From Candidatus Aminicenantales bacterium (GTDB lineage: Bacteria > Acidobacteriota > Aminicenantia > Aminicenantales > Saccharicenantaceae), in assembly GCA_049512315.1 (NCBI GenBank), contig JBEKXF010000001.1, forward strand, positions 137,340 to 201,339: a DNA stretch of 64,000 nt, written 5' to 3'. A program made the position numbers and the translations under genes. This document shows, one piece after another, positions 14,786-58,927 of the stretch. How positions within the stretch are numbered: position 1 is the stretch's first letter; the number at the start of each line of letters is the position of its first letter. The notes under the pieces were generated by a model, which saw nothing but the letters and a program-made list of their open reading frames with translations, had not been told where the DNA came from and ran no database searches.

Positions 14786-14810
14786 AGGGCGCCCCTTAAC
14801 TCTCAGTCAT

Positions 14811-14840
14811 TTGACAATAATCCTCCTTTAGTGCTATAAA
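14811..14840 (+). promoter_or_regulatory. Sigma70-type promoter (TTGACA-N18-TATAAA) for hrcA-grpE-dnaK-dnaJ
   Basis: Exact -35 at 14811-14816 and TATAAA at 14835-14840. The ATG follows at 14859 with a GAAGG RBS. Confidence 0.45.
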
Positions 14841-14858: not shown

Positions 14859-15917
14859 ATGGCCAAGTCTGCCCTGCGCGATAAAGACAAGAAGGTCCTG
14901 TACCTCGTCGTCGAGGGCTATGTCCGAGGCGGCCATCCCGTCAGCTCGGGCTCGATCGCCCAGACGAGGAAGTTCGACGGCTCGCCGGCGACCATCCGGA
15001 ATATCATGGTCAAGCTCGAGGAGCAGGGATACCTATCCCAGCCCCACACGTCGGCCGGCCGGGTGCCGACCGACAAGGGATTGAAGTATTACGTCAACAG
15101 CCTCCTCTCGGAAAAGACCTTCGCCCGGGACGATTTTCCCCTGATTCAGGACGAATTCACGGCCAAGACGGCGGATCTCGATTCCCTCCTGATCCAGGCT
15201 TCCCGTCTCCTGGCCGACTATTCCGACAACCTAGGTTTCGTGATCTCGCCACAGGTCTCCCGGGTCCAGTTCGAGCACCTCCGGTTTATCAGGATCTCCC
15301 CGCAAAGGACCATGGCCATCCTGGTGACGCCGTTCCAGATGGTCCTGACCGAAACCCTGGAGACCCCGCTTTCCCTTTCCCAGGCCGAGCTCGACCGAGC
15401 CTCCCAGTTCATCAACCAGAATTTCCGTGGGAAGACGCTGATCTTCGTCCGTGACGCCCTGCTCCAGGATCTTCCCAAGTACCGGATGAGATACGAGGAC
15501 ATCATCAACAAGCTCCCCGAGCTTGTCCGGGCCGTCATCAACCGCGAGGAGGACGAGAACCGGATCTTCATCCAGGGCTCGTCCCGGCTCCTCGGCAAGG
15601 CCGAGCTGTCCGACATGGGCAAGCTGAGGTCCCTGTTCGAGAACTTCGAGGAAAAGGCCGGCCTGGTCAGGCTTCTGGCTGATTTCATCAGCTTGGACCG
15701 GGTCAAGGTCCTGATCGGGGCCGAGGTCAATTTCCCCAACGTCCAGGACTGCTCCCTGGTCCTGTCCCATTATGGGACGAGCCACCAGGTCCTCGGCTCC
15801 CTGGGCATCATCGGTCCCAAGAGGATCCCTTATGCGAAGATCATCCCGCTCGTCGACCGGGTCGCCAAGCGGCTGAGCCAGGCCATCACCATCTACGGGA
15901 GAGAGGTCTCGTTATGA
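14859..15917 (+). CDS. hrcA: Heat-inducible transcription repressor HrcA
   Basis: N-terminal winged-helix region (KKVLYLVVEGYVRGGHPVSSGSIA) and the HrcA C-terminal domain. First gene of the grpE-dnaK-dnaJ operon. Confidence 0.85.
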   Translation: MAKSALRDKDKKVLYLVVEGYVRGGHPVSSGSIAQTRKFDGSPATIRNIMVKLEEQGYLSQPHTSAGRVPTDKGLKYYVNSLLSEKTFARDDFPLIQDEFTAKTADLDSLLIQASRLLADYSDNLGFVISPQVSRVQFEHLRFIRISPQRTMAILVTPFQMVLTETLETPLSLSQAELDRASQFINQNFRGKTLIFVRDALLQDLPKYRMRYEDIINKLPELVRAVINREEDENRIFIQGSSRLLGKAELSDMGKLRSLFENFEEKAGLVRLLADFISLDRVKVLIGAEVNFPNVQDCSLVLSHYGTSHQVLGSLGIIGPKRIPYAKIIPLVDRVAKRLSQAITIYGREVSL

Positions 15918-16564
15918 CGGACGATGATAAAAAAAAGCCAACCGAAGAGATCGAATACATTGCGGAGCCCGGTGCCCCCGGGGAAGTCAGACCGAAGGAG
16001 AAGGAGCCGGCGGCCGCCGAACCGGAGAAAACGGAGCCCGCCGCCCAGGAAAAAGAGCCGTCCCAGGCGATCAAGCATCTGAAGGAGAAGCTCAAGAAGC
16101 GTGAGGCCGAGATCAAGAACCTCAAGAAAGAGGCGGAGGACCTCAAGGACCAGTACCTGAGAAAACTCGCCGACGTCGAGAACCTCCGGAAAAGGCTCGA
16201 GCGGGAGAAGAACGATTACTTCCAGTTCGCCTTGAGCGAGGTCCTGCTCGAGTTCCTGGGCATCCTGGACAATTTCGAGCGGGCCCTTCAGGCCTCGGGC
16301 CGGGACGCGGACGGAAAGACGTTCCGGGAGGGGATCGACCTTATCTACAGGATGTCCATGAACCTCCTTCTCAAGCGGGGCGTCCGGCCGATCGAGATCA
16401 AAGACGGTCATTTCGACCCGGCCCTCCAGCAGGCCATGGCCGTGGAGGAGTCGGCGGAGGTCCAGGAGCCCCGCGTCACGGAGGAGCTCCAGAAAGGATA
16501 CATGCTCCACAACCGGCTTCTCCGCCCGTCCCTGGTCAAGGTCATCATTCCCAAGAAGGATTGA
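15914..16564 (+). CDS. grpE: Nucleotide exchange factor GrpE
   Basis: ATGA overlap with hrcA. LADVENLRKRLEREK...ILDNFERA GrpE signature. Confidence 0.9.
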   Translation: MTDDDKKKPTEEIEYIAEPGAPGEVRPKEKEPAAAEPEKTEPAAQEKEPSQAIKHLKEKLKKREAEIKNLKKEAEDLKDQYLRKLADVENLRKRLEREKNDYFQFALSEVLLEFLGILDNFERALQASGRDADGKTFREGIDLIYRMSMNLLLKRGVRPIEIKDGHFDPALQQAMAVEESAEVQEPRVTEELQKGYMLHNRLLRPSLVKVIIPKKD

Positions 16565-16568
16565 CGCT

Positions 16569-18149
16569 ATGGACCGCATCATCGGAATCGACCTCGGCAC
16601 GACCTATTCCTGCATCGCCTATCTCGAAGGGGGCAGCCCCGTCGTCCTTCCCAACCTGGAAGGCCTGCCGACGACGCCCTCCGTCGTCTCGTTCACTTCG
16701 GCGGGGGAAAGGCTGGTCGGGACACTGGCTCTGAGGCAGGCCATCACCAATCCCCAGAACACCATTTTCGCCGTCAAGCGGCTCATCGGCCGGAAATTCG
16801 ATTCCGATGAGATCTCGTCGGCCCGGGCCAGGTTGCCCTACAGGCTGAGCGAAGCCAAGAACGGGGATGTGCTCGTGGCCGTGGACTCGAGAGCTTTTAC
16901 TCCCCAGGAGCTCTCGGCCATGATCCTGTCCTACCTCAAGGGCTGTGCGGAGTCCTTTTTCGGCGAAAAGGTCTCGGACGTCGTCATCACGGTCCCCGCC
17001 CATTTCAACGACCACCAGAGGCAGGCGACGAAGGACGCCGCCCTGATCAGCGGCTTCAACGTCCAGCGGGTCATCAACGAGCCGACGGCCGCCGGCCTGG
17101 CCTACGGTCTCAACAGCAAGAAAAACGGGATCGCGGCGGTCTTCGACCTCGGCGGCGGGACCTTCGATATCACCCTGATGGAGATCCGAGACGGCGTTTT
17201 CAACGTCCTCGCCACGAACGGCGATTCCTACCTCGGCGGCGAGGATTTCGACAACAGGATCATCGAGTGGCTGGTCGAGGATTTCCGCAAGGAGATGGGG
17301 ATCGACCTCCATCACGATAAGCTGGCTCTGCAGAGGATCAAGGAGGCCGCGGAAAGGGCCAAGCGGGAGCTATCCTTCACTCTGGAGACCGAGATCAACC
17401 TGCCGTTCATCTGCTCGGACCAGACCAGTTCCAAGCACCTCAGGAAGATCCTGACCCGTCAGAGTCTCGAGGAGTTGACCTTCGACCTCGTCGAGCGGAC
17501 GATCCCCCTGGTCGAAGAAGCTTTCGGCGAGGCCCGCCTGGACCCCGACAAGATCGACGATATCATCCTCGTCGGCGGGCAGACCCGGATGCCGCTCGTC
17601 AAGAAGAGGCTGACGGAGTTCTTTGAGAAAAAGCCGGCCGAGTACATCAATCCTGAGGAGATCGTGGCCATGGGGGCGGCCATCCAGTCCGGCATCCTGC
17701 AGGGTCAGGTCCGTGGCCTTATTCTTCTCCTCGATGTCACTCCCTTTTCCCTCGGGATCGAGACGGAGAACGATGGCTACGAAACGGTCATCGAGAAGAA
17801 CTCGACGATCCCCCTGCGGAAGACCAAGGCCTTCACGACCGTCGACCACAACCAGCGCCGGGTCAGGCTCCACGTCCTCCAGGGCGAAAACCCGCTCGCT
17901 TCGCTGAACAAATCGCTGGCCGTGTTCGAGCTCGTGGGCATCGAGCCCGCTCCCGCCGGCGTGCCCCAGATCGACGTGACCTTCGAGATCAACGCCGACG
18001 GCCTCGTCAAGGTCTCGGCCAGGGACATCGCGACGGGGCTGCAGCAGAAGATCGAGGTCCGGCCCTCTTCCGGTCTTGCGCCGAACGAGATCGCGGCGAT
18101 CATCGAGAGGCAGAAGGGCGAGGGGGTGAGGTCGAACCCGAATGGCTAA
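16569..18149 (+). CDS. dnaK: Hsp70 chaperone DnaK, C-terminally short (526 aa; helical lid and C-terminal tail absent)
   Basis: [40 protein letters not shown] and [14 protein letters not shown] motifs. The ORF ends just after the SBD-beta. Its stop overlaps the dnaJ ATG, so no room remains for the roughly 100-aa lid. Confidence 0.85.
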
Positions 18150-19275
18150 GCGGGATTATTATGAGATCCTCGGGATTCCGCGGACCGCCCCGGCCGAGGA
18201 GATCAAGAAGGCCTACCGCCAGATGGCGCTGAGGCACCATCCTGACCGCAACCCCGGGAACAAAGAAGCCGAGGAGAGGTTCAAGGAGGCCGCCGAAGCC
18301 TACAGCGTCCTGATCGACGTCGAGAAGCGATCGATCTATGACCGCTACGGCCAGGACGGGCTGCGCGGCGAAGGATTCCAGGGCTTCTCCGGATTCGATT
18401 CGACCGTCTTCGAGGACTTCGAGGATATCCTCGGGAATTTCTTCGGTTTCAGCTTCGGGGATTTTTTCGGCGGCGGCCGGCGCCGGGGCGGCCCCGAGGG
18501 TGAGAGAGGCCGTGACCTGGCCCTTGAGGTCGAGGTCAGCCTCGCGGAAGCCGCGGCCGGAGTCGACAGGGAGATCAAGCTGAACCGGTCCGAGGTCTGT
18601 CCGACCTGTCACGGGTCTAAAAGCAAGCCCGGGACGGCCCCCTCCACCTGCCCGTTATGCGGCGGAAAGGGCCAGATGCGTTACCAGCAGGGCTTCTTCA
18701 CGGTGGCCAGGACATGCCCGAGGTGCCAGGGCCGCGGCCAGGTCATTGCCTCGCCGTGCGAAAGCTGCGAGGGCAAAGGCCACGTCAAGGAAAAGCGGGC
18801 CCTCCGGGTCCGGATCCCGGCCGGGGTCAGCGACGGCTCCCGGTTGAGGCTTGTCGGGGAAGGGGAAGCCGGAGACGAGGGGATGCCGGGAGGCGATCTT
18901 TATGTCGTGACTCGGGTCCGCAAGCATCCGTTTTTCGAGCGGGAAGGGAACGACCTGATTTGCCAGATCGGGATCTCGTCGACCCAAGCGGCGCTCGGAG
19001 CCAGGATCGAGATCCCGACCCTCGACGGGAGCGAAGTCTTGAAAATTCCCGCCGGGACCCAGCCGGGAGAAACCTTCAAGCTCAAGGGCAAGGGTGTCCC
19101 CGATATCTCAGGCCGGAGGAGGGGGGACCTCTTTGTCAGGGTCCAGGTCAAGACGCCGGAGGGGCTGTCCAAGGAGCAGAGAACGCTCCTGGCCAAACTG
19201 GCCGAGCTCAGGGGTGAAACGACCGAGGCCGTCGACCAGAGCGTCATCCACAAGGTCAAGAACATTCTCCATTAG
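18142..19275 (+). CDS. dnaJ: Chaperone DnaJ
   Basis: J-domain with HPD, a G/F-rich region, and four CxxCxGxG zinc-finger repeats. Confidence 0.95.
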
Positions 19276-19857: not shown

Positions 19858-20796
19858 ATGTTTCTCCAGGGCCAGAAGGTCGGAAAATACGAGATCCTCC
19901 GCTCGCTCGGCAGCGGTGGCTTCGGCTCCGTCTATCTGGCCAAGGACACCTGGCTTGACATCAAGGTCGCCATCAAGGTCCCCCACAAGCAGTCCGCCGA
20001 GCTCTACAAGCTCCTGAAGGAGCCGCGGCTGCAGGCCGCCCTCAGCCATCCGAACATCGTCCGGATGCTGGCCGCCGAAAAAGAGAAGAACATTTTTTTC
20101 ATGGTCATGGAGTATGTCAAAGGTCCGACTCTGGAGAAAATCCTGGAGAAGGAGCGGGTCCTCGGCTGCGAGCAGGCCCTGGACTACGTCAAGCAGGTCG
20201 CCTACGGCATCGACCACGCCCACAAAAACAAGATCATCCACCGGGACCTGAGACCGTCGAATATCATCATCTCGGAGGACGGGACGGCCAAGATCACCGA
20301 CTTCGGGACGTCGGCCTGGCTCAACTCCGTACCGTACGCCTCGACGAGGATCGGGTCTCCGCCCTACATGGCCCCGGAGCAGTTCCTGGGCAAGGCCAGC
20401 TACGCGTCGGATATCTATTCGATCGGCTGCATCTTCTATGAGATGATCATCGGCCGGCCCCCGATCTTCGACCCGGACCCGTTCAAGATCCTGGAAAAGG
20501 CCCAGCAGGGCAAGATCACGCCGCCGCGGATCCGCAACAACAAGGTCCCCAAGGAGATCGACGTCATCATCATGAAGGCCCTGGCCCCCAAGGTCGAGGA
20601 CCGTTACCAGAGCGCCGCAGAGATCGTCCGGGACCTGTCGCTTTACAAGGGCAAAACCCCCAGAACGTCGGAGATCGACGACATCATGCTCCGGATCAAG
20701 GCCCGGGAGCAGAAGGCTTCTGGCCAGTGCTGGAACTGTCGCCGGCCTCTGCCGCCGAAGTCCCGCAACTGCCCCCACTGCGGGGAGAACGTCTGA
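19858..20796 (+). CDS. Hanks-type Ser/Thr protein kinase with C-terminal zinc-ribbon
   Basis: GSGGFGSVY, VAIK, HRDLRPSNIII, DFG and APE motifs. C-terminal CWNCRRPLPPKSRNCPHCGENV. No TM segment. Confidence 0.85.
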   Translation: MFLQGQKVGKYEILRSLGSGGFGSVYLAKDTWLDIKVAIKVPHKQSAELYKLLKEPRLQAALSHPNIVRMLAAEKEKNIFFMVMEYVKGPTLEKILEKERVLGCEQALDYVKQVAYGIDHAHKNKIIHRDLRPSNIIISEDGTAKITDFGTSAWLNSVPYASTRIGSPPYMAPEQFLGKASYASDIYSIGCIFYEMIIGRPPIFDPDPFKILEKAQQGKITPPRIRNNKVPKEIDVIIMKALAPKVEDRYQSAAEIVRDLSLYKGKTPRTSEIDDIMLRIKAREQKASGQCWNCRRPLPPKSRNCPHCGENV

Positions 20797-30921: not shown

Positions 30922-32196
30922 ATGAGCGAACAGGACAAGAAGAACCGCCTCCTCGACAAGAGCCCGAGCAGCAAGGAGATCGAGCTCGAGATCCCGTCCG
31001 AGGAGGTCGAGAGGGAATACGCCAAGGTCCTCTGCGACTACGCCGGCCGGGTCAAGCTCCCGGGCTTCCGGAAAGGGCATGCCCCCAAGGACATGGTCAG
31101 GAACCTTTTTGACCATGACATCCTCCATGACGTCTACGACGAGCTCATCCCCAAGGTCCTCGGCGAGGAGCTCAAGGCCCACAACCTGAATCCGGTCAAC
31201 GTCCCCGCGATCCATGACCTCCGCCACGAACACGGTCAGCCCCTGCGCTGCACGGTGGCCTTTGAGGTCCTGCCCGATTTCGATCTCCCCGATTACCGGA
31301 GCGTCCAGGTCCCGGAACACGCGGCCGCCGTCGACGAGGCCGAGCTCGAGAAGGCCCTGGAGCAGCTCCAGGCCAGGGCGGCGGAGTACATCTCGGTAGC
31401 GGGCAGGGGAGTGGCGGACGGGGATTATGTGGCGGCCGAGATCCACGGTAAGGACCTCAAGACCAAACGGTTCCTGCCTGTGGAGAAAGCCGTCGTCCTG
31501 GCCGGCCACTCTGATAACGAGCCGGCCCTGAACGAAGCCATCAAGGGCCAGAAGCCCGGGGAAGAGCGTGTTTTCCTGGTCTCCCACGGAAAGGACCATG
31601 CCAATAAGCGCGTGGCCGGGAGAGAGATCAAATACACCCTGAAGGTCAGCGAGATCAAGGAGAAGAAGATCCCGGAGCTCAACGACGAATTCGCCAAGGC
31701 CGCGGGCGACTATGCCGACCTCAACGACCTCAGGGAGAAGGTCCGCAAGGAGCTCTTGGAAGCCCGGGAGCGGGCCGGCCGGAACGCCACCGCCTCGGCC
31801 GTCCTCCGGGAGATCGCCAAGAAAGTGCCTCTGGAACTCCCCGAGTCCGTCGTCGAACATGAAACCCTGAGCGTCCTCAAGCGGATGCTGAACGCCGTCC
31901 GGCAGCCCCGGATCCCCGCCGACGCCCTGGAGGGGCTCAAGGCCCAGGCCAGAAACCAGGCCGGCGAGAACCTGACGAACCACCTCATCCTGGAAAAGAT
32001 CGCCCGCCAGGAGGGTTTCGAGGTTTCCGACGAGGAGATCCAGGCGGAGATCAAGACCCTAGCCCAGGCCAACGGGGTCCCCGAGAAGTACCTGGCGGAT
32101 ATGATCGCCAGGGAGAACCGCCGCGAGGAGATCCAGGAAACCCTGCTCTTCCGCAAAACAGTTGACTTTTTGGTGAAAAACGCTATAATTAAATGA
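30922..32196 (+). CDS. tig: Trigger factor
   Basis: N-terminal ribosome-binding region (GFRKGHAPK), a PPIase-like middle domain and a C-terminal arm. 424 aa. Confidence 0.9.
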   Translation: MSEQDKKNRLLDKSPSSKEIELEIPSEEVEREYAKVLCDYAGRVKLPGFRKGHAPKDMVRNLFDHDILHDVYDELIPKVLGEELKAHNLNPVNVPAIHDLRHEHGQPLRCTVAFEVLPDFDLPDYRSVQVPEHAAAVDEAELEKALEQLQARAAEYISVAGRGVADGDYVAAEIHGKDLKTKRFLPVEKAVVLAGHSDNEPALNEAIKGQKPGEERVFLVSHGKDHANKRVAGREIKYTLKVSEIKEKKIPELNDEFAKAAGDYADLNDLREKVRKELLEARERAGRNATASAVLREIAKKVPLELPESVVEHETLSVLKRMLNAVRQPRIPADALEGLKAQARNQAGENLTNHLILEKIARQEGFEVSDEEIQAEIKTLAQANGVPEKYLADMIARENRREEIQETLLFRKTVDFLVKNAIIK

Positions 32197-32324: not shown

Positions 32325-34757
32325 ATGCAGGATTCCAGCGAGCATTCCGAGGTCCTCAGGAACATCCCTCTTATCCCCCTGAGAGACCTCGTGGTCTTTC
32401 CCGCGACCCTGGTGCCCTTCATCGTCGGGCGCTCCTCCTCCATTCAGGCCCTGGAAAAGGCCGCGGAAAAGGACAAGATGATCTTCCTCGCCGCCCAGAT
32501 GGACGCCTCGATCGACAATCCGACGGCCAAGGACATTTATTCGGTGGGAGTCACGGCCAAGATCATCCGGACCATCAAGTCCGACGAGAAGAACATGAAG
32601 GTCATCGTCGAGGGCAAGAGCCGGGCCCGGATCGTCGAATACCTCAGCACCTACCCTTATTACCAGATCCTGGCCAAGGTGATCAAGGAGGTGGACGAGC
32701 ACTTGCCGGAGTCCAAAGACCTCCTGAAAAGGGTGCTGGCCCTCTTCGAGGACTACCTCAAGCTCATCCAGAACGCCAACCTCGATTCGATCATCCCGGC
32801 CCTCAGGGAGAACACCCCTGACCGGATCACGGACATCATCGCGTCCCATGTCTACATGCCGCTTGAGGAGAAGCAGAACCTCCTCGAAACGGCCAACAGC
32901 CTCGAGCGGCTCCGCCGCCTGAACTACGTCCTGGAGAACGAGATCCTGAAGATTCACGCCTCCTACCAGAAGGACCCCCAGAGGGCCAACCGGCGGCGGG
33001 TGAGCCTGAAGGAACAGGGGCAGAAGGCCTTCCCGCCCGGGTCCCCCAATTTCCGGAAGGAAGACCAGCCGAACGAGATCGAGGAGCTCCGCCAGAAGGT
33101 CGTCAAAGCCAAGATGCCTCCGGACGCCGAGGAGAAATCCTACAAGGAGATCGAGCGCCTGGAGGCTATGCCCCCCATGTCGGCCGAGGCGACGGTCAGC
33201 CGGAATTACCTGGACTGGCTCATCTCCCTCCCCTGGGTCAAGAAATCCCGCGAGAAGCGGGAGCTCAAAGAGGCCGAGAGGATCCTCAACGAGGACCATC
33301 ACGGCCTGGAAAAGGTCAAGGAGCGCATCCTCGAGTACCTGTCCATCCGGCAGCTCGTCAAGAACCCGCGCGGGGTCATCCTGGGCTTCATCGGCCCCCC
33401 GGGAGTGGGCAAGAGCTCCCTGGGCAAGTCCATCGCCCGGGCGACCGGGCGGAAGTTCGTCCGCCTATCGCTCGGCGGGGTCCGGGACGAGGCCGAGATC
33501 CGGGGCCACCGCCGGACCTACATCGGCGCCTACCCTGGACGCATCATCCAGATGATCAAGCGGGCCGGGACGAAAAACCCCGTCTTCCTCCTCGACGAAG
33601 TCGACAAAATGAGCATGGATTTCCGCGGCGACCCGGCCTCGGCCCTAATGGAAGTTCTTGACCCTGAACAAAATGGCACCTTCCTGGACCATTACATCGA
33701 CACCGATTTCGACCTCTCCCAGGTCATGTTCATCGTCACGGCGAACATGCTCGACCCCATCCCGAGGCCCCTGCTCGACCGGATGGAGATCATCCGGCTC
33801 CCCGGCTATACGGAGGACGAAAAGCTCCAGATCGCCAAGCGCTTCCTCCTGCCCAAGCAGATGGGCGCCCACGGTCTGAGCCAGGTCAACCTGAAGATCT
33901 CCGACCAGTCCCTTCTCAAGCTCATCCGCAGCTACACCCGGGAGGCCGGCGTCCGGAGCCTGGAGCGGGAGATCACGACGATCTGCCGCAAAGTCGTAAA
34001 GCGGGTCGTCCAGAAAGGCAAGGACCATTCCGAGAAGGTCACGCCCAGGAACCTGGAGTCTTTCCTCGGAGTCCCCAAGTTCCGGCGCTCCGAATTCGAC
34101 ACGAGGGACGAGGTGGGCGTATCGACCGGGATGGCCTGGACGGAGTTCGGCGGCGAACTCCTGAGGTTCGAGGCCAACAAGATCCACGGCAAGGGGAACT
34201 TCACCCTGACCGGACAGCTGGGCGAGATCATGCAGGAGTCGGCCCAGGCGGCCTTCAGCTTTGTCCGCGGCAAGATCTACGAGCTCGATATCGCTCGGGA
34301 CCTCCATCGCAACTTCGACATCCACGTCCACGTCCCGGAGGGCTCGACCCCCAAGGAAGGCCCTTCAGCGGGCATCACCATCGCCACGGCCATCATCTCC
34401 CTCCTGACCGATATCCCGGCGAGCAAGAAGGTGGCCATGAGCGGGGAGATCACCCTGAAAGGCAAGGTCCTGCCCGTGGGCGGGATCAAGGAAAAGCTCC
34501 TCGCGGCCTACCGGGAAGGGATCCGGGAGGCCGTCCTGCCTTTGGACAACAAGCCCGACCTGAAGGACCTGCCGAAAGTCCTGAGGCTGCATATGGTCAT
34601 CCACCTCGTCGAGACGATGGACGAGGTCCTCAAGATCGCCCTGACCAGGGAGCTTCCCCAAAAGCCCGAAAGCCCAGAGGCGAAAGCCGCCGAGGCTGAA
34701 CGGAAAGCCCGGGCAGGGGAGGAGGAGGCGCCCAAGGAGCCGCCCCTGACGAACTGA
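32325..34757 (+). CDS. lon: ATP-dependent Lon protease
   Basis: LON N-domain, AAA+ module (GPPGVGKSS), and a protease domain with catalytic S (PKEGPSAG) and K. Confidence 0.95.
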
Positions 34758-34841: not shown

Positions 34842-36134
34842 GTGAGGTCAATGATGAAAGAGTACAATCTGGTCGAGCTGGAGGAAAAAGAGCTCTCCGC
34901 CCTGAAGAAGCTCGCGGTCAGCATGGGGATCGAGGAGCCCGAAATCGAGGAAACCAGCAAGCACCAGCTGATCTTTAAGGTCCTCGAGGCCCAGGCCAAG
35001 AGGCAGGGAATGCTGTTCTCGGAAGGCGTTCTCGAGTGCCTCGAGGACGGCTTCGGGTTCCTGAGGGCCCCGGAGTTCAGCTACCTGCCGAGCCAGGACG
35101 ACATCTATGTTTCGCCTTCCCAGATCCGGAAATTCCAGCTCCGGACCGGGGACACGATCTCGGGCCACGTCCGGGCCCCGAAAAACGGGGAAAAATACTT
35201 CGCCCTGATCAAGATCGAGGCCGTCAACTTCATGCACCCGGACGTCATCATCGAGGAAAGGCGGAACGTCATCTTCGAAAGCCTGACGCCGCTCTATCCA
35301 TTCGAGATGATCAAGCTCCAGGACGGGAACCCGAAGAACATGAACGCCCGGGTCATGGAGCTCCTGACGCCCATCGGCAAAGGCCAGCGCGGGCTCATCG
35401 TGTCGCCGCCGAGGGCCGGCAAAACGACCATTCTCAAGACGATCGCCAAGTCCATCGAGAAAAACCACCCCGAGATCTTCCTGATCGTCCTCCTGGTTGC
35501 CGAGCGGCCGGAGGAAGTGACGGATTTCAAGAGGAGCGTCAACGGGGAGGTCGTCGCCTCGACGTTCGACGAGCCGCCGACCCGGAACGCCCAGGTCGCG
35601 AACATCGTCCTCGAGAAGGCCAAGAGGCTCGTCGAGATCAAGCGGGACGTCGTTATCCTGCTCGACTCGATCACCCGGCTGGCCAGGGCCCACAACGCGA
35701 TCGTCCCGCCCTCGGGGAAGGTCCTATCGGGCGGCATCGACGCCAACGCCCTTCACAAGCCGAAGAAGTTCTTCGGGTCGGCCCGCAAGGTCGAGGAAGG
35801 CGGGAGCCTGACCATCCTGGCCACGGCCCTGGTGGACACGGGAAGCCGGATGGACGAGGTTATTTTCGAGGAGTTCAAGGGGACGGGCAACATGGAGATC
35901 AACCTCGACCGGAGGCTCGTCGACAAGAGGGTTTTCCCGGCCATCGACATCAGCCGGTCCGGGACCCGGAAAGAGGAGCTCCTGATCGAGGAGGCGGACC
36001 TCAACCGGATCTGGGTCCTACGGAAGGTCCTCAGCCAGATGAACGAGGTCGAGGCCGTGGAACTCTTGATCGACAAGCTGAGCAAGACGAAGACCAACCA
36101 GGAGTTCATGAGCGCCATGAGCAAGGCCCTGTAA
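34842..36134 (+). CDS. rho: Transcription termination factor Rho
   Basis: N-terminal OB/RNA-binding region ([14 protein letters not shown]), Walker [11 protein letters not shown]-loop and R-loop. The start may instead be 34851 or 34854. Confidence 0.95.
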
Positions 36135-36156
36135 AAGAGCCAGAGACGGGGAACGA

Positions 36157-36192
36157 GGCCGGGCGGCCTAAGCCGCGCCGGCCTCTTTTTTT
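36157..36192 (+). terminator. Rho-independent terminator after rho
   Basis: GC-rich hairpin GGCCGGGCGGC-ctaa-GCCGCGCCGGCC followed by TCTTTTTTT. Confidence 0.65.
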
Positions 36193-36591
36193 GGCCAAAA
36201 AGCGATATAGACGCGGGCGTCGGAGTAGTTTTTGGGATCGCCTTGAAGAAGGATCGGTTCAGAAAGCGGACGATAATGGGAAAAGTCATGAAGCGGTTGC
36301 AAGGGACATTCTTTATAGAGGGGCAAAGAATTTCCACATTTGCACAAGGATTGGTCAGCGGGGATATTCACAGGCTGTGAAGAATTCTAAGTGAATGTAA
36401 TAGAAATAGATAAAGTGGGCTGGAATAATGAGTCGCATAAGGATTATTATGTCAACTAATATCAGGATCTGCCCAGAGGCAACAAATGGCCCGCCGATCG
36501 GCCGCTTTTCCCCATATGAAGGCTTGCGCGAGGGTTCCTTGGGGGGTGAGATTTGTAATGAAAAACCTTCCCGGAGCTGGACCTTACGACC

Positions 36592-37389
36592 TTACCCTTC
36601 TTTGGCTTTCAGTCTGCGGATGATGTCCTCGAGGACTTCGATAATCTCGCTTTGGGAAATAGATTGCTTCTTGAACTCCAGCCTAAGTCTGAACCTGTCC
36701 GTGTCTTCGGGGACGAAATTATAGACGTAATATTTGAGCTTTTTCAGCTTCCCCTTGAGGTGCTTAGAAAGGTCGCGGGTATCTTCTCGGGTCAGATGGC
36801 GCTCGGCGATCTCCTTGACGAGCTTGAGCATGTCTTCGTCGGTCTTCTGTTTGGCGATCTCGATGATCGTGCCCCGGCTGAATGCTCCGGAGGACTTGAT
36901 GATCTCCCGGACAGACGCCGGGATCCTCGAGATCGAGAGTATTTCGGTGATCGTCGAACGGGCTTTCCCGATCTTTTCGGAGACCTGTTGGTGGTTGTAC
37001 CCGTAAAGGTCGATCAGGGATTGGAGGCCGTCGGATTCCTCGAAGAGGTCAAGGTCTTTCCGCTGAAGGTTCTCGATCAGGGCGATCTCCATGGCCTCGT
37101 TTTCCTCGACGTCCATCTCGATGCACGGGATCTCCTTGAGCCCGATATTCCTCGAGGCCAGAAACCGCCGCTCGCCGGCGATGATCTCAAACCTGTTCCC
37201 TTTGGAGCGGACAAGGATGGGCTCGAGGACACCCTTGCTCCGGATGGATTCCATGAGCTCCTGGATGTTGCCGAGCTCGCTCCGGGCCTGATGGGGGTTC
37301 GGGTCGATATGCTCGAGCGGGATCATCCGGATGCGGGGTCCGAGCGACCTGGACGAAAGCAGGTCGACAAAGTGGCCATCATGCCTCAT
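36592..37389 (-). CDS. parB: Chromosome partitioning protein ParB
   Basis: ParB box (GERRFLASR), HTH and C-terminal dimerisation region. Start at MRHDGHF. The longer ORF-track N-terminus is Arg/Ser-rich, low-complexity, and overlaps parA. Confidence 0.85.
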   Translation of the reverse strand: MRHDGHFVDLLSSRSLGPRIRMIPLEHIDPNPHQARSELGNIQELMESIRSKGVLEPILVRSKGNRFEIIAGERRFLASRNIGLKEIPCIEMDVEENEAMEIALIENLQRKDLDLFEESDGLQSLIDLYGYNHQQVSEKIGKARSTITEILSISRIPASVREIIKSSGAFSRGTIIEIAKQKTDEDMLKLVKEIAERHLTREDTRDLSKHLKGKLKKLKYYVYNFVPEDTDRFRLRLEFKKQSISQSEIIEVLEDIIRRLKAKEG

Positions 37390-37417
37390 CGTGACGGTTT
37401 CAGGAAGACCGGATCGC

Positions 37418-38182
37418 TTAGCTTTTTGCACGTTCCAATATCTCCTCGGCGACTTTTCGGTATTGCTCCGCCCCGACGGATTCGGGAGCATATGTGAAGA
37501 TCGATTCCTTGTAGGCCGGGCTCTCTTCGAGCTTGACGCTCTTCGAGATAAATGTCTTGAAGACCTTCTTTCCGAAGACGCGGCGGATCCTCTGCACGAC
37601 ATCCCGCCCGAGGTTCGTCCTCCTGTCGTGAAGAGTGACCAGGACCCCGATGATCTTCAGGCCGGGGTTGGCGATCCGGCGGACTTTCTCGATGGTCTCT
37701 AGGAGGTCATCCGTGCCCTCGAGAGCCAGATATGAGGATTGGATCGGGATCAGGATGGCCGACGCGGCGACGAGGGCGTTCATGGTGATCAAGCCCAGGG
37801 TCGGCGGGGTGTCGATGAAGATGAACTGGTATTTGTGCTTGATGGATTCGAGGGCGTCCTTCAGGCGGAAATGAGCGTCGATCTCGCCGAGAAGGGATGG
37901 CTCCAGCTTGGCCATGGAGATCTTGGCCATCGCCATGTCCAGGCCAGGAACCGTTGAACGGACGATAATGTTATCCATCTTCTCGTGTTTGTTCATTAGG
38001 ACATCGTAGAGCGATTTTTCATAGCTCGACGGGTCGGCCACGGTCGAGATCGTGCTGTGGGCCTGAGGGTCCATGTCTATGAGGAGGACCTTCTTCCCCA
38101 TCAAAGCCAGGGCAGATGAAATGTTGATGGATGTCGTGGTTTTCCCTACGCCGCCTTTCTGGTTCGTGATAGCGATGATCAA
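37418..38182 (-). CDS. parA: Chromosome partitioning ATPase ParA/Soj
   Basis: Deviant Walker A NQKGGVGKTT. Putative TTG start giving (M)IIAITNQKGG, preceded by GGAGGGAGAG at a 6-nt spacing. A GTG two codons upstream is an alternative. Confidence 0.8.
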   Translation of the reverse strand: MIIAITNQKGGVGKTTTSINISSALALMGKKVLLIDMDPQAHSTISTVADPSSYEKSLYDVLMNKHEKMDNIIVRSTVPGLDMAMAKISMAKLEPSLLGEIDAHFRLKDALESIKHKYQFIFIDTPPTLGLITMNALVAASAILIPIQSSYLALEGTDDLLETIEKVRRIANPGLKIIGVLVTLHDRRTNLGRDVVQRIRRVFGKKVFKTFISKSVKLEESPAYKESIFTYAPESVGAEQYRKVAEEILERAKS

Positions 38183-56043: not shown

Positions 56044-56402
56044 TATTCACCAATGAGTTCCTTGATCTTGAGCTTGAGCTCATCGAGCGAGGACGATTTC
56101 ACGACGTAGGCGTCGGCAGCCCAGGTCATGAAATCCTCCTTGTGGCTCTGGTAGGCCGAGTTGATGATGATGGGGATATCCTTGCGGAGCCCCATGATCT
56201 GGGTGATGAGCTCGATCCCGTTCTTCCCCGGCATCCGGATGTCGGTAATGATGAGGTCGAAGGTCGTTTTCTTGAGCTCCCTCAAGGCGGCGTCGGCATC
56301 GTAGGCCGTCGTGACGGCGTAGCCGGCCTTGCCGAGCTCCTCCCCGTACAGCAGACAGAGTGCCTTCTCATCTTCGACGACGAGGATCTTCTTCATGGCC
56401 AA
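56043..56402 (-). CDS. Stand-alone CheY-like response regulator receiver
   Basis: 119 aa: VVEDE...DLIITDIRMPG...K. No output domain. Its stop overlaps the galT ATG (TAATG). Confidence 0.85.
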   Translation of the reverse strand: MAMKKILVVEDEKALCLLYGEELGKAGYAVTTAYDADAALRELKKTTFDLIITDIRMPGKNGIELITQIMGLRKDIPIIINSAYQSHKEDFMTWAADAYVVKSSSLDELKLKIKELIGE

Positions 56403-57746
56403 TTACCCCCTTTCCCGGCTTTGAAAAATGAGCTTGAACAGGGCCCCCTTCCCGGCCCGGCTCTGGACCTCGATCTTCCCGCCGCAGGTGTCCATGACCC
56501 TCTTGATGAACGACAAGCCCAGGCCCATCCCCTTCTCCTTGGTGGTGAAAAAGGGCCTGAAGAGCTGGCCCTTGTCCGGGTTGGAGATGCCCTGGCCCGT
56601 GTCCCTCACCGAAAGGATGAATGACGTCTTGTTCTTCCGGTAGGCCCGCACGGAAACCGTTCCTTCCTCCGGCGTTGCGTCGAACGCGTTGTCGAGGAGG
56701 TTTCGCAGGACCTCCCCGAATAAGGTCGGGTCGCAGAGGACCTGGGGCAGGCAGTCCTCGATCTTGACGTTGAGGGTGGTGCCCTGGCCTTTGGCCAGGA
56801 CCTCGGGGCTGCGGAGGACGGATTCGATCGCCGGCCCGACATCGAAGTAGACCGGTTCCTTCAGGCTGACCTTGAGGAAGTGGCCCATCTGGTAAACGAT
56901 ATTCTCCAGGCGCCGGATCTCGTCCCGGATGATCCTCAGGTTCCGCTCCCTCTTGTCCTCGGAAACCCCCGGCTGGAGGAGCTGGTCGGTGAATCCGCCG
57001 ATGGTCACCAGCGGATTCCTGAGTTGGTGGGTGACGAACATGGCCATCTCGCCCATGGCGGCCATCTTTTCCGCTTCGAGAAGCCGCTCGTGAAGCGTGG
57101 CCGAATAGATATAATTGCTGGCGATCAGGCCGCAGAGGCTGGCGAGCTTGACGTCCCCCGGGCTGATGGGGACGCGGGTGAAAGCGTTGTCCAGGATGAT
57201 TTCGCCGAAGACCTCGTCCCGGGCGAGGAGCGGGATGCAGAGGAACTCGTCGACCTGGATGAGCTCGAGGAACTCCTTGTCCACCATCGGGTCCTTCGAA
57301 GCCTCGCGGACGAGGTAGGTCTCCTTGTTGCAGGCCGCATAGGCCGGAATCAAAGCGCAGGTCTCCTCGTCCATGGTAAAAACGAGATTCTTGATGCGGC
57401 GGCTGAGGGTGTCCTCGTTCTTGCTGACGAGGGTCCGGTTGTGCTCGATGATCTCGACGTAGCCGATCCCCGGCGTCGAGAGGACCTCCCAGATGTACCC
57501 GGCCTCCTCCGGAGTCCGCGGCCCAAGCCAGGTCTCGCCCCGGAGGCAGTCTCCGTCTCGGAGGAAGAGCATGGCCCGGTTGAAGCCGACCCCGGAGCCG
57601 GAGGTCAGGGCGGTCATGATGACGAGGAGGTTGTCCTCCAGGGAAAAAGGCTGGAAGAAGCTCTGGGAGATGATGGACAGAAGCATCATCTCCTTGGGGG
57701 CGTTCTTCTCGAAATCCGAAGCCAGGAAGTTGTACTTCTCGATCAT
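56403..57746 (-). CDS. Cytoplasmic GAF-domain sensor histidine kinase
   Basis: Two GAF-like regions, H-box FVTHQLRNPL, then N and G boxes (DNAFDAT, DTGQGI, GMGLGLS). No TM helices. Confidence 0.85.
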   Translation of the reverse strand: MIEKYNFLASDFEKNAPKEMMLLSIISQSFFQPFSLEDNLLVIMTALTSGSGVGFNRAMLFLRDGDCLRGETWLGPRTPEEAGYIWEVLSTPGIGYVEIIEHNRTLVSKNEDTLSRRIKNLVFTMDEETCALIPAYAACNKETYLVREASKDPMVDKEFLELIQVDEFLCIPLLARDEVFGEIILDNAFTRVPISPGDVKLASLCGLIASNYIYSATLHERLLEAEKMAAMGEMAMFVTHQLRNPLVTIGGFTDQLLQPGVSEDKRERNLRIIRDEIRRLENIVYQMGHFLKVSLKEPVYFDVGPAIESVLRSPEVLAKGQGTTLNVKIEDCLPQVLCDPTLFGEVLRNLLDNAFDATPEEGTVSVRAYRKNKTSFILSVRDTGQGISNPDKGQLFRPFFTTKEKGMGLGLSFIKRVMDTCGGKIEVQSRAGKGALFKLIFQSRERG

Positions 57747-58927
57747 TCGTCCTTCCAGCCTTTGGGGACGACCCGGACGCCGGACTTGCTGATCTTGAAA
57801 TTCCGGCCGTCCTTTTCCGCGTCGATGCCGATCTCGAAGCGCTCGGGGATGACGCTGAACTTGTCGACAATGACTTTCTTGAGCTTGGCCCCTCGGCCGA
57901 CCTTGACCCCTTCGAGGAGGATTGAATCATAGACCTCGGCCCTGTCGCAGATCCGGACACCCGGAGAGATGATCGAATTCTCGACCCGCCCCCCGGACAG
58001 GGTGACCCCCGGGCTGAGGATCGAATTCCGGATCGTGCCTCCCTCGATATAGGCCGGCGGGTACTGGGGCTTGTAGGTCCTGAAAGGCCAGTCCGGGTCG
58101 CGGAGAATGGCCGGTGAGGGGTCGGCCAGGAAGGCCATATTGGCTTCCCAGTAGGCGTCGATCGTCCCGATGTCTTCCCAGTAGTCATCGAAGAGGTAGG
58201 CGAAGGTCCGGTGGTCATGGATCAGGCTGGGGATGATGTCCTTCCCGAAGTCGTGGGCGCTCGCGGAGCGCCGGGCGTCCTTGAACAGGGCCTTGATCAG
58301 GACCGGAGTCTTGAAGAGGTAGACGCCCATGGAGATCAGGCTCCTCCCTGGATCCCAAGGCGTCGCTGAGGCTTTCTTTGGCTTTTCCATGAACTCGATG
58401 ATCCGGCGGTCCTCGTCGATCCCGAGGACGCCGAACCGGGACGCCTCCCGGGCCGGGATGACCCTCGTCATGATCACCGCGTCGGCGTCCCGCTCCCCCG
58501 AAAAGAGGAGAAGCTTCCGGTAGTCCGCCTTGTAGATGTGGTCGCCCGAGAGAACGAGGACGTGTTCCGGGGCCTCCTGCTGGATGGTGTAGATATTCTG
58601 GAAGACGGCGTCGGCCGTGCCCTCGTACCAGCGGTCGCCGACCCGGCCCTGGGCCGGAATGGACAGGATGAAGTCGCCGCTCTCGGCGTGGAAGATGTTC
58701 CAGCCGTTGATGATGTGCCGCTCGAGGGACAGGGATTTGTACTGGGTGACCAGGGCAATCTTCCGGAGCCCCGAGTTGAGGGCGTTCGAGAGGCTGAAAT
58801 CGATGATCCGGTAAGCGCCGAGGAACGGGACGGAGGGCTTGGCCCGGTCCCGGGTGAGGGGGTAAAGCCTCTCCCCCTTCCCCCCGCACAGGACCATGAC
58901 CAGCGTTTTCTTAGATGACAGTTCCAT
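57743..58927 (-). CDS. glgC: Glucose-1-phosphate adenylyltransferase
   Basis: LCGGKGERLYPLT...PAVPF-like motifs. Start at MELSSKK. ATGA overlap with the kinase gene. Confidence 0.9.
   Translation of the reverse strand: MELSSKKTLVMVLCGGKGERLYPLTRDRAKPSVPFLGAYRIIDFSLSNALNSGLRKIALVTQYKSLSLERHIINGWNIFHAESGDFILSIPAQGRVGDRWYEGTADAVFQNIYTIQQEAPEHVLVLSGDHIYKADYRKLLLFSGERDADAVIMTRVIPAREASRFGVLGIDEDRRIIEFMEKPKKASATPWDPGRSLISMGVYLFKTPVLIKALFKDARRSASAHDFGKDIIPSLIHDHRTFAYLFDDYWEDIGTIDAYWEANMAFLADPSPAILRDPDWPFRTYKPQYPPAYIEGGTIRNSILSPGVTLSGGRVENSIISPGVRICDRAEVYDSILLEGVKVGRGAKLKKVIVDKFSVIPERFEIGIDAEKDGRNFKISKSGVRVVPKGWKDE

Follow-up and report, generated by a model that had tools for sequence, protein, structure and literature searches.

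A lidless DnaK encoded in the hrcA-grpE-dnaK-dnaJ operon of Aminicenantia

The open reading frame (ORF) at positions 16569-18149 (+) of a 64,000-nucleotide (nt) stretch from a Candidatus Aminicenantales bacterium (GenBank assembly GCA_049512315.1, contig JBEKXF010000001.1, positions 137,340-201,339 of the forward strand; GTDB lineage Bacteria; Acidobacteriota; Aminicenantia; Aminicenantales; Saccharicenantaceae) codes for a DnaK-type Hsp70 of 526 amino acids (aa). The whole 64-kb stretch is hereafter called the window, and all coordinates are positions in it, position 1 being its first letter. The protein is probably a functional, naturally lidless DnaK of an HrcA-linked GrpE-DnaK-DnaJ system, from a lineage which would have lost helices B-E of the lid together with the C-terminal tail. 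The absence of the lid is a lineage-wide trait of Aminicenantia, with co-evolved changes at the former lid-contact sites; in both respects the result goes beyond an earlier sequence-only reading of the same stretch.

End point of the dnaK gene in the window and in related genomes

The sequence-only reading had described the nucleotide-binding domain (NBD) and the beta-sandwich part of the substrate-binding domain (SBD-beta) as complete and conserved, and the lid and tail as absent from a protein ending at residue 526. All of this was upheld. When compared with PDB sequences using phmmer, residues 1-513 aligned with residues 1-517 of Escherichia coli (E. coli) DnaK without large gaps, and the residues found to be invariant in the family (see below) are present. 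Among the curated profiles of Pfam and NCBIfam, for which scores were compared with the model cutoffs, the match to Pfam PF00012 (HSP70) spans profile positions 1-515 of 599 and that to the NCBIfam DnaK model PRK00290 positions 1-509 of 625. The end point corresponds approximately to residue 530 of E. coli DnaK, at the junction of helix A and helix B, and the chain has neither helices B-E nor the D526 hinge nor the acidic tail. The AlphaFold model has a mean predicted local distance difference test score (pLDDT) of 76.9, with a confident NBD (block means mostly 75-95, two 10-residue blocks at 67) and a lower-scoring beta-sandwich. It contains a single C-terminal helix, residues 505-518, which corresponds to helix A and is followed by disorder. 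The best Foldseek matches of the model were structures of E. coli DnaK, with the engineered truncated constructs 7KZU and 7KRU in front; the ATP-state structures 4B9Q and 4JN4 were also matched, with a query-normalised template modelling (TM) score of approximately 0.8.

The dnaK stop codon (TAA, 18147-18149) lies within the start of dnaJ, the ATG of which is at 18142-18144, and the junction ATGGCTAA (18142-18149) contains the overlap of the final two dnaK codons and the stop with the dnaJ start. As the sequence-only reading had argued, a hidden lid is precluded by this overlap: readthrough of the stop, read from the sequence, would add four codons before a TGA.

The same end point was found in related genomes. 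In a collection of 5.8 billion proteins, the best 120 clusters among the matches listed, which derive from assemblies of JGI, ENA, NCBI and Logan, were 68-100 % identical to the window DnaK and 409-530 aa long. Of these clusters, 117 were of 520-530 aa; the other three (409, 511 and 513 aa), with a query coverage of only 78-100 % and one of them labelled partial, look partial. Scanning of one genome per GTDB species gave 80 loci with 63-87 % identity, which, where informatively labelled, belong to Candidatus Aminicenantes, Aminicenantia or Saccharicenans and include two closed chromosomes of the lineage (OY969586.1 and CP070750.1). The dnaK gene was complete in 78 of these loci, coding for 515-532 aa, and the lid was absent in each (78/78), which places the lidless form in at least 78 related species besides the window bacterium. 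Across the complete genes the dnaJ start lies -23 to +25 nt from the dnaK stop and TAA, TAG and TGA are all used as stop codons; the 8-nt overlap of the window is also found in 24 related loci. Clustering of a protein library at 50 % identity leaves a single representative (530 aa) for the entire family, and none of the next matches exceeds 54 % identity, most of them having 600 aa or more. The family was monophyletic in 50 of 50 neighbour-joining (NJ) bootstraps, with a mean column identity of 78 % among 31 members.

Core genes are not usually truncated, which would favour an artefact or a decaying gene, that is, a premature stop introduced by a sequencing or assembly error, a pseudogene, or the product of readthrough or a frameshift. 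Nevertheless, 78 species-level assemblies of independent origin, long-read closed chromosomes among them, and over 100 protein clusters share the end point; the catalytic residues are invariant, readthrough gives only the short extension described above, and the downstream frames code for a complete DnaJ. The sequencing or assembly error which the sequence-only reading had raised as a possible source of the stop is excluded by the recurrence of the truncation with varied stop codons and varied junctions, and the explanation as a whole has a negligible probability.

Conserved residues, former lid contacts and identity of the protein

In an alignment of 79 family sequences, for which E. coli DnaK numbering is used, D8, K70, R71, P143, R151, R167, N170, E171, T199 and D201 were invariant. 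The LLLD of the linker, N415, T417 and P419 were invariant or nearly so, the linker of the window protein reading GLILLLD compared with the canonical DVLLLD. Q433 and the pocket residues F426, V436 and I472 were also invariant, and D481 was kept in 78 of the 79 sequences. The ATPase site, the linker, the features contacting the J domain and GrpE, and the hydrophobic pocket are intact, and the gene appears to have been kept under purifying selection in its lidless form. In the nucleotide cleft, the lower salt bridge R56-E264 is kept across the family and the upper one, K55-E267, is lost family-wide, position 55 (codon at 16731-16733 in the window) being L, M, Q or W. By the classifications based on E. 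coli, the loss of K55 predicts a faster intrinsic release of nucleotide.

Beyond the beta-sandwich, helix A has a conserved pattern, SSGLxxxEhxxhhxR, and the tail is variable, both in its sequence and in the number of residues (0-20). The last tail residues are dictated by the overlap with the dnaJ start, as xAT-GGC-TAA codes for N, D or H and then G. In a Saccharicenans-like subclade (loci L057, L058, L064, L066, L067, L070-L073, L079 and L080) the tail ends in (E/D)(E/K)(E/Q)GLL and dnaJ overlaps dnaK by 23 nt; this motif is either functional or a by-product of the overlap.

In E. coli DnaK, R445 pairs with D526. The latter has been described as a conserved lid hinge (PMC5895705), and the lid is latched by the pairs R467-D540 and D431-H544, with N537 forming a hydrogen bond to M404 (PMC8215388). 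In the Aminicenantia family R467 is replaced by A in 79/79 sequences and R445 by S, G or N, and position 431 varies among H, D and N, the lost latch residues being A463, N441 and H427 in the window protein. Both arch residues are changed in 79/79 sequences, M404 to E and A429 to V (E400 and V425 in the window protein); in addition, A435 is replaced by R in 96 % of the sequences and T437 by R or K in 85 %. A scan for signature positions returned few fixed differences: R467A, A435R, K122Y, T126C, P293S and A30L. E404 failed this filter because Glu is occasionally found at that position in other Hsp70s. The pattern is as would be expected from the sequences for an ancient loss of the lid followed by remodelling of the surface on which it docked.

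The replaced latch residues argue against a split DnaK, in which the lid would be coded by a separate gene and supplied in trans. Such an arrangement has no direct support, although the retained helix A could in principle dock a partner. With R467, R445 and D431 replaced family-wide, docking at the usual site is not favoured; in no locus is there an ORF between dnaK and dnaJ, and a search of the window in six frames for an ORF similar to the lid of E. coli DnaK found none, which is a weak test given that lids diverge fast. A split DnaK is therefore considered very improbable.

If the protein is a functional lidless DnaK, it would be expected to follow a normal cycle driven by ATP, stimulated by DnaJ and reset by GrpE, with normal allosteric control of the cleft, because all elements of the ATP/DnaJ/GrpE cycle are present. 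ATP-dependent docking of SBD-beta onto the NBD would open the cleft. In the ADP state there would be no lid closure, and the loops of the beta-sandwich alone would have to hold the substrate. Binding and release would be faster, and bulky clients or aggregates could be engaged without movement of a lid; by analogy with engineered truncations, the natural lidless DnaK is probably a fast-exchanging, aggregate-competent Hsp70. The E400/V425 arch and the arginines R431 and R433 of strand beta4 might partly replace the lid by forming a clasp over the cleft and providing a hydrophilic exposed surface, although this compensation, including an ionic clasp, is speculative.

Over the NBD, linker and SBD-beta the window protein is 55 % identical to DnaK, 43 % to HscA and 34 % to HscC of E. 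coli, and within SBD-beta its identity to HscC is 23 %. Its score with NF001413 (PRK00290, DnaK equivalog) was 722.4, above the cutoff of 648, and it stayed below the cutoff of both HscA models (531 compared with 620, and 529 compared with 708). HscC has been described as lacking NBD residues 76-101 and the GrpE loop, having an insertion in L1,2 and working with DjlC/DjlB, and HscA as lacking the GrpE loop (Mayer review, PMC8215388). HscA is further marked by an N-terminal extension and by its hscB-hscA-fdx gene context. In the window protein the segment 76-101 is present and the GrpE-signature loop (285-295) is kept, H295 being invariant in the family. Clustering with HscC, a possibility which the sequence-only reading had raised, was thus excluded by the lower identity and the absence of HscC-type indels, and HscA was ruled out by its identity and scores and by the lack of isc genes nearby. 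By sequence, the protein is a DnaK.

Several observations weigh against the reading of this DnaK as a functional, principal one. The score with TIGR02350 (705.8) is below the cutoff of 822.55, because approximately 100 profile positions are unmatched. The median identity of the family to core DnaKs is 51 %, compared with 56 % among the core DnaKs themselves, although the family is far closer to them than are HscA (45 %) and HscC (36 %). A crude NJ tree of the representatives of the 50 %-identity library places the family near atypical Hsp70s and outside the E. coli-like cluster, in a broad clade which also holds HscA and many atypical multidomain Hsp70s; NJ placement is unreliable at this depth, and identities and diagnostic indels are relied on here instead. 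The AlphaFold confidence is low in SBD-beta (43-69). Control of the operon by HrcA is assumed from gene order alone, and the CIRCE operator (controlling inverted repeat of chaperone expression) was not found: the full consensus with up to three mismatches had no match in the window, and its core with up to two mismatches had three (3.1 expected), none of them near the operon. In addition, a 2026 review reports many DnaK derivates with a shortened or deleted lid, the lid-deleted ones being accompanied in all cases by a bona fide DnaK among 130 genomes surveyed (PMC13580251), and two dnaK genes occur in approximately 32 % of 38 Acidobacteria genomes (PMC11019930), Aminicenantes not being included in the supplement of that duplication survey.

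The last two points bear on the possibility that the protein is a specialised lid-deleted paralog, or derivate, which has come to reside in the hrcA-grpE-dnaJ operon, with a full-length DnaK elsewhere in the genome doing the general work. The slightly greater divergence of the family and its altered arch would agree with this, as would the short Hsp70 cluster representatives known from other lineages. Four such natural Hsp70s of approximately 520-536 aa, from unrelated lineages (P0225, P0263, P0269 and P0164, loci L084-L087), were looked up: one is alone on a 3.2-Mb contig, two follow immediately after small J-domain proteins, and one is downstream of a TIM-GrpE fusion, with dnaJ absent and transposases near. 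In contrast, grpE, dnaJ and hrcA stand alongside the Aminicenantia gene in every locus reaching far enough among the 80 species-level genomes, and the GrpE loop, linker and J-contact residues, typically lost from derivates, are kept. No second Hsp70 was found in six frames of the window, and none of the 80 loci has a further Hsp70 within 6 kb. The closest full-length representative in the library, P0125, was considered as a second Aminicenantia copy and rejected; it is at an hrcA-dnaK locus and belongs to another lineage, because its HrcA is only 34 % identical to that of the window. The paralog explanation is thus regarded as unlikely, while retaining real weight. The lidless protein would on balance be the principal Hsp70 of the DnaK-DnaJ-GrpE (KJE) system of Aminicenantia; that it is also their only DnaK-type Hsp70, with DnaJ and GrpE as its partners in every Hsp70 function, is put forward tentatively, with slightly more doubt than belief.

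Operon, promoter and neighbouring genes

The assignment of the four genes to an hrcA-grpE-dnaK-dnaJ operon, made in the sequence-only reading, was confirmed with Pfam and NCBIfam (Table 1). The same order was found in every related locus which reached far enough, with hrcA upstream of grpE wherever there was sufficient flank, and was usually followed by rsmE.

Table 1 Features of the dnaK operon and its surroundings in the window
Feature	Position	Strand	Evidence or remark
Candidate sigma-70-like promoter	14811-14840	+	TTGACA at 14811-14816, 18-nt spacer, extended -10 TGcTATAAA at 14832-14840
hrcA, heat-inducible repressor	14859-15917	+	TIGR00331, 289.6 bits (cutoff 197.2); Pfam HrcA
grpE, nucleotide exchange factor	15914-16564	+	Pfam GrpE, E=3e-46; NF010738, 140.6 (cutoff 137)
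dnaK, NBD, residues 1-380	16569-17708	+	Aligns fully to the NBD of E. coli DnaK
dnaK, interdomain linker, residues 381-392	17709-17744	+	Equivalents of L391, L392 and D393 invariant (79/79)
dnaK, SBD-beta beta-sandwich, residues 393-503	17745-18077	+	Aligns to E. coli residues 397-507
dnaK, helix A, residues 504-518	18078-18122	+	AlphaFold helix 505-518; sole remnant of the alpha-subdomain
dnaK, 8-residue disordered tail and TAA	18123-18149	+	pLDDT below 50, residues 519-526
dnaJ, full-length class A	18142-19275	+	TIGR02349, 426.3 (cutoff 377.2); Pfam DnaJ, DnaJ_CXXCXGXG, DnaJ_C
rsmE, 16S rRNA methyltransferase, 190 aa	19284-19856	+	Pfam Methyltrans_RNA; NCBIfam match only from approximately position 76
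Ser/Thr protein kinase, C-terminal double zinc ribbon	19858-20796	+	Starts 2 nt after rsmE

The arrangement TTGACA-N17/18-T(G/A)TGCTATAAA is kept upstream of hrcA in most of the related loci. A consensus promoter scanner skips the TTGACA-N18-TATAAA of the window, as it demands T at the last position of the -10 element. A short palindrome abuts the -35 element upstream of hrcA, being CTGACTnTCAGTCA in the closer relatives and TTAACTCTCAGTCA in the window (palindrome and promoter together within 14797-14840), and could be an operator.

GrpE has an N-terminal extension of approximately 50 aa which is rich in Lys, Glu and Pro. DnaJ consists of the J domain, the G/F region, the zinc finger and the C-terminal domains. 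RsmE has approximately 250 aa in most related loci, short forms being found also in L012, L016, L019 and L021; in the window protein the first approximately 20 residues align and approximately 50-70 are then skipped, which looks like an in-frame deletion within the N-terminal domain. The Ser/Thr kinase gene which follows rsmE may be cotranscribed with the heat-shock operon.

The wider window is unremarkable chromosomal sequence and contains genes such as alaS, cysS, trigger factor and lon. The trigger factor gene (30922-32196, +) is followed directly by lon (32325-34757, +), with no clpP or clpX between them, and its product matched only Trigger_N and Trigger_C at E<=1e-5, no match to the peptidyl-prolyl isomerase domain being listed (residues approximately 150-266). 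Three long ORFs, at 35036-36394 (+), 56368-58218 (-) and 58215-58889 (-), were without a Pfam match at 1e-5 and have a low G+C content at third codon positions (0.38-0.42, compared with approximately 0.8 elsewhere in the window). A ParB-like gene (36592-37602) adjoins one of them, and the three may be of foreign or mobile origin.

The Aminicenantia protein among known Hsp70 systems

The lid has been described as standard in every DnaK-type Hsp70, and its function has been studied almost exclusively with truncations, made in the laboratory, of proteins adapted to having one. The DnaK of Aminicenantia would represent a long-running natural deletion of the lid, located in the main heat-shock operon and bearing a signature of adaptation, namely the loss of the latch arginines, a re-made arch and arginines on the newly exposed strand. 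It would provide a natural system for asking what the lid is needed for, peptide trapping as opposed to the handling of aggregates or the stabilisation of folded clients, and the family substitutions are candidate compensatory changes for E. coli DnaK. If there is no second DnaK, the lineage would break the rule by which truncated DnaKs are accessory paralogs only; if the lidless protein is the sole DnaK, the alpha-helical part of the substrate-binding domain (SBD-alpha) would be dispensable for a free-living bacterial lineage, and the E404/V429 arch, the beta4 arginines and A467 would represent compensatory re-engineering of the cleft. There is also a practical consequence: TIGR02350 is a standard bacterial marker-gene model and, with the window protein scoring below its cutoff, the lineage could be recorded as being without the marker. 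No description of this protein was found in the literature searched on the DnaK of Aminicenantes or on natural lidless DnaKs.

With canonical E. coli DnaK (approximately 638 aa) the window protein shares, besides 55 % identity, the catalytic, allosteric and J-contact residues, the GrpE loop and the pocket, and with canonical bacterial DnaKs generally it shares the hrcA-grpE-dnaK-dnaJ context and a best NCBIfam match above the cutoff. Unlike E. coli DnaK, it is without helices B-E, the D526 hinge and the acidic tail of approximately 30 aa, its latch residues are replaced, its arch is E/V instead of M/A, and the K55 bridge is lost.

In domain content and in having nearly the same end point, the protein resembles engineered lidless constructs, namely DnaK 2-517, 1-507 and 2-538, the truncated DnaK of 7KZU/7KRU, M. 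genitalium DnaK without SBD-alpha (5OBU) and lid-truncated BiP (7A4U); constructs of this kind were also its best Foldseek matches. Peptide on- and off-rates of lidless DnaK are raised, according to Buczynski et al. 2001 as cited in PMC5895705. In the case of DnaK1-507, the interaction with DnaJ is kept, ClpB is recruited, and aggregates are bound more readily and reactivated as by the wild type (PMC5895705), whereas truncation of the lid abolishes the stabilisation of folded clients (summarised in PMC8215388). These constructs are truncations of lid-adapted proteins; the truncation in Aminicenantia is, in contrast, natural and apparently old, because it is common to members which are only 63 % identical, and it is accompanied by fixed substitutions at the former lid interface.

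The three prokaryotic Hsp70 types distinguished in reviews, DnaK (approximately 640 aa), HscA (600-620 aa) and HscC (550-580 aa), all have lids (PMC8215388). HscC (556 aa in E. coli) and HscA are like the window protein in being shorter than DnaK, and HscA likewise is without R467, but both retain a shortened lid, work with dedicated J-proteins (DjlC and HscB, respectively) and do so without GrpE. The eukaryotic HSPA12A/B and HSPA14/Ssz1 are without an alpha-helical lid (PMC13580251); these are distant relatives which act as non-canonical regulators and not as general foldases.

The derivates of Myxococcales and other complex bacteria are also natural Hsp70s with chain ends near helix A, but are accessory paralogs with linkers that are often altered, whereas a bona fide DnaK consists of NBD, linker, basket and lid and travels with DnaJ and GrpE (PMC13580251). 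The DnaK of Aminicenantia differs from the derivates in having a canonical linker and in its location in the main KJE operon. It is thus a hybrid, which combines the architecture of a derivate with the sequence, linker and operon of a bona fide DnaK.

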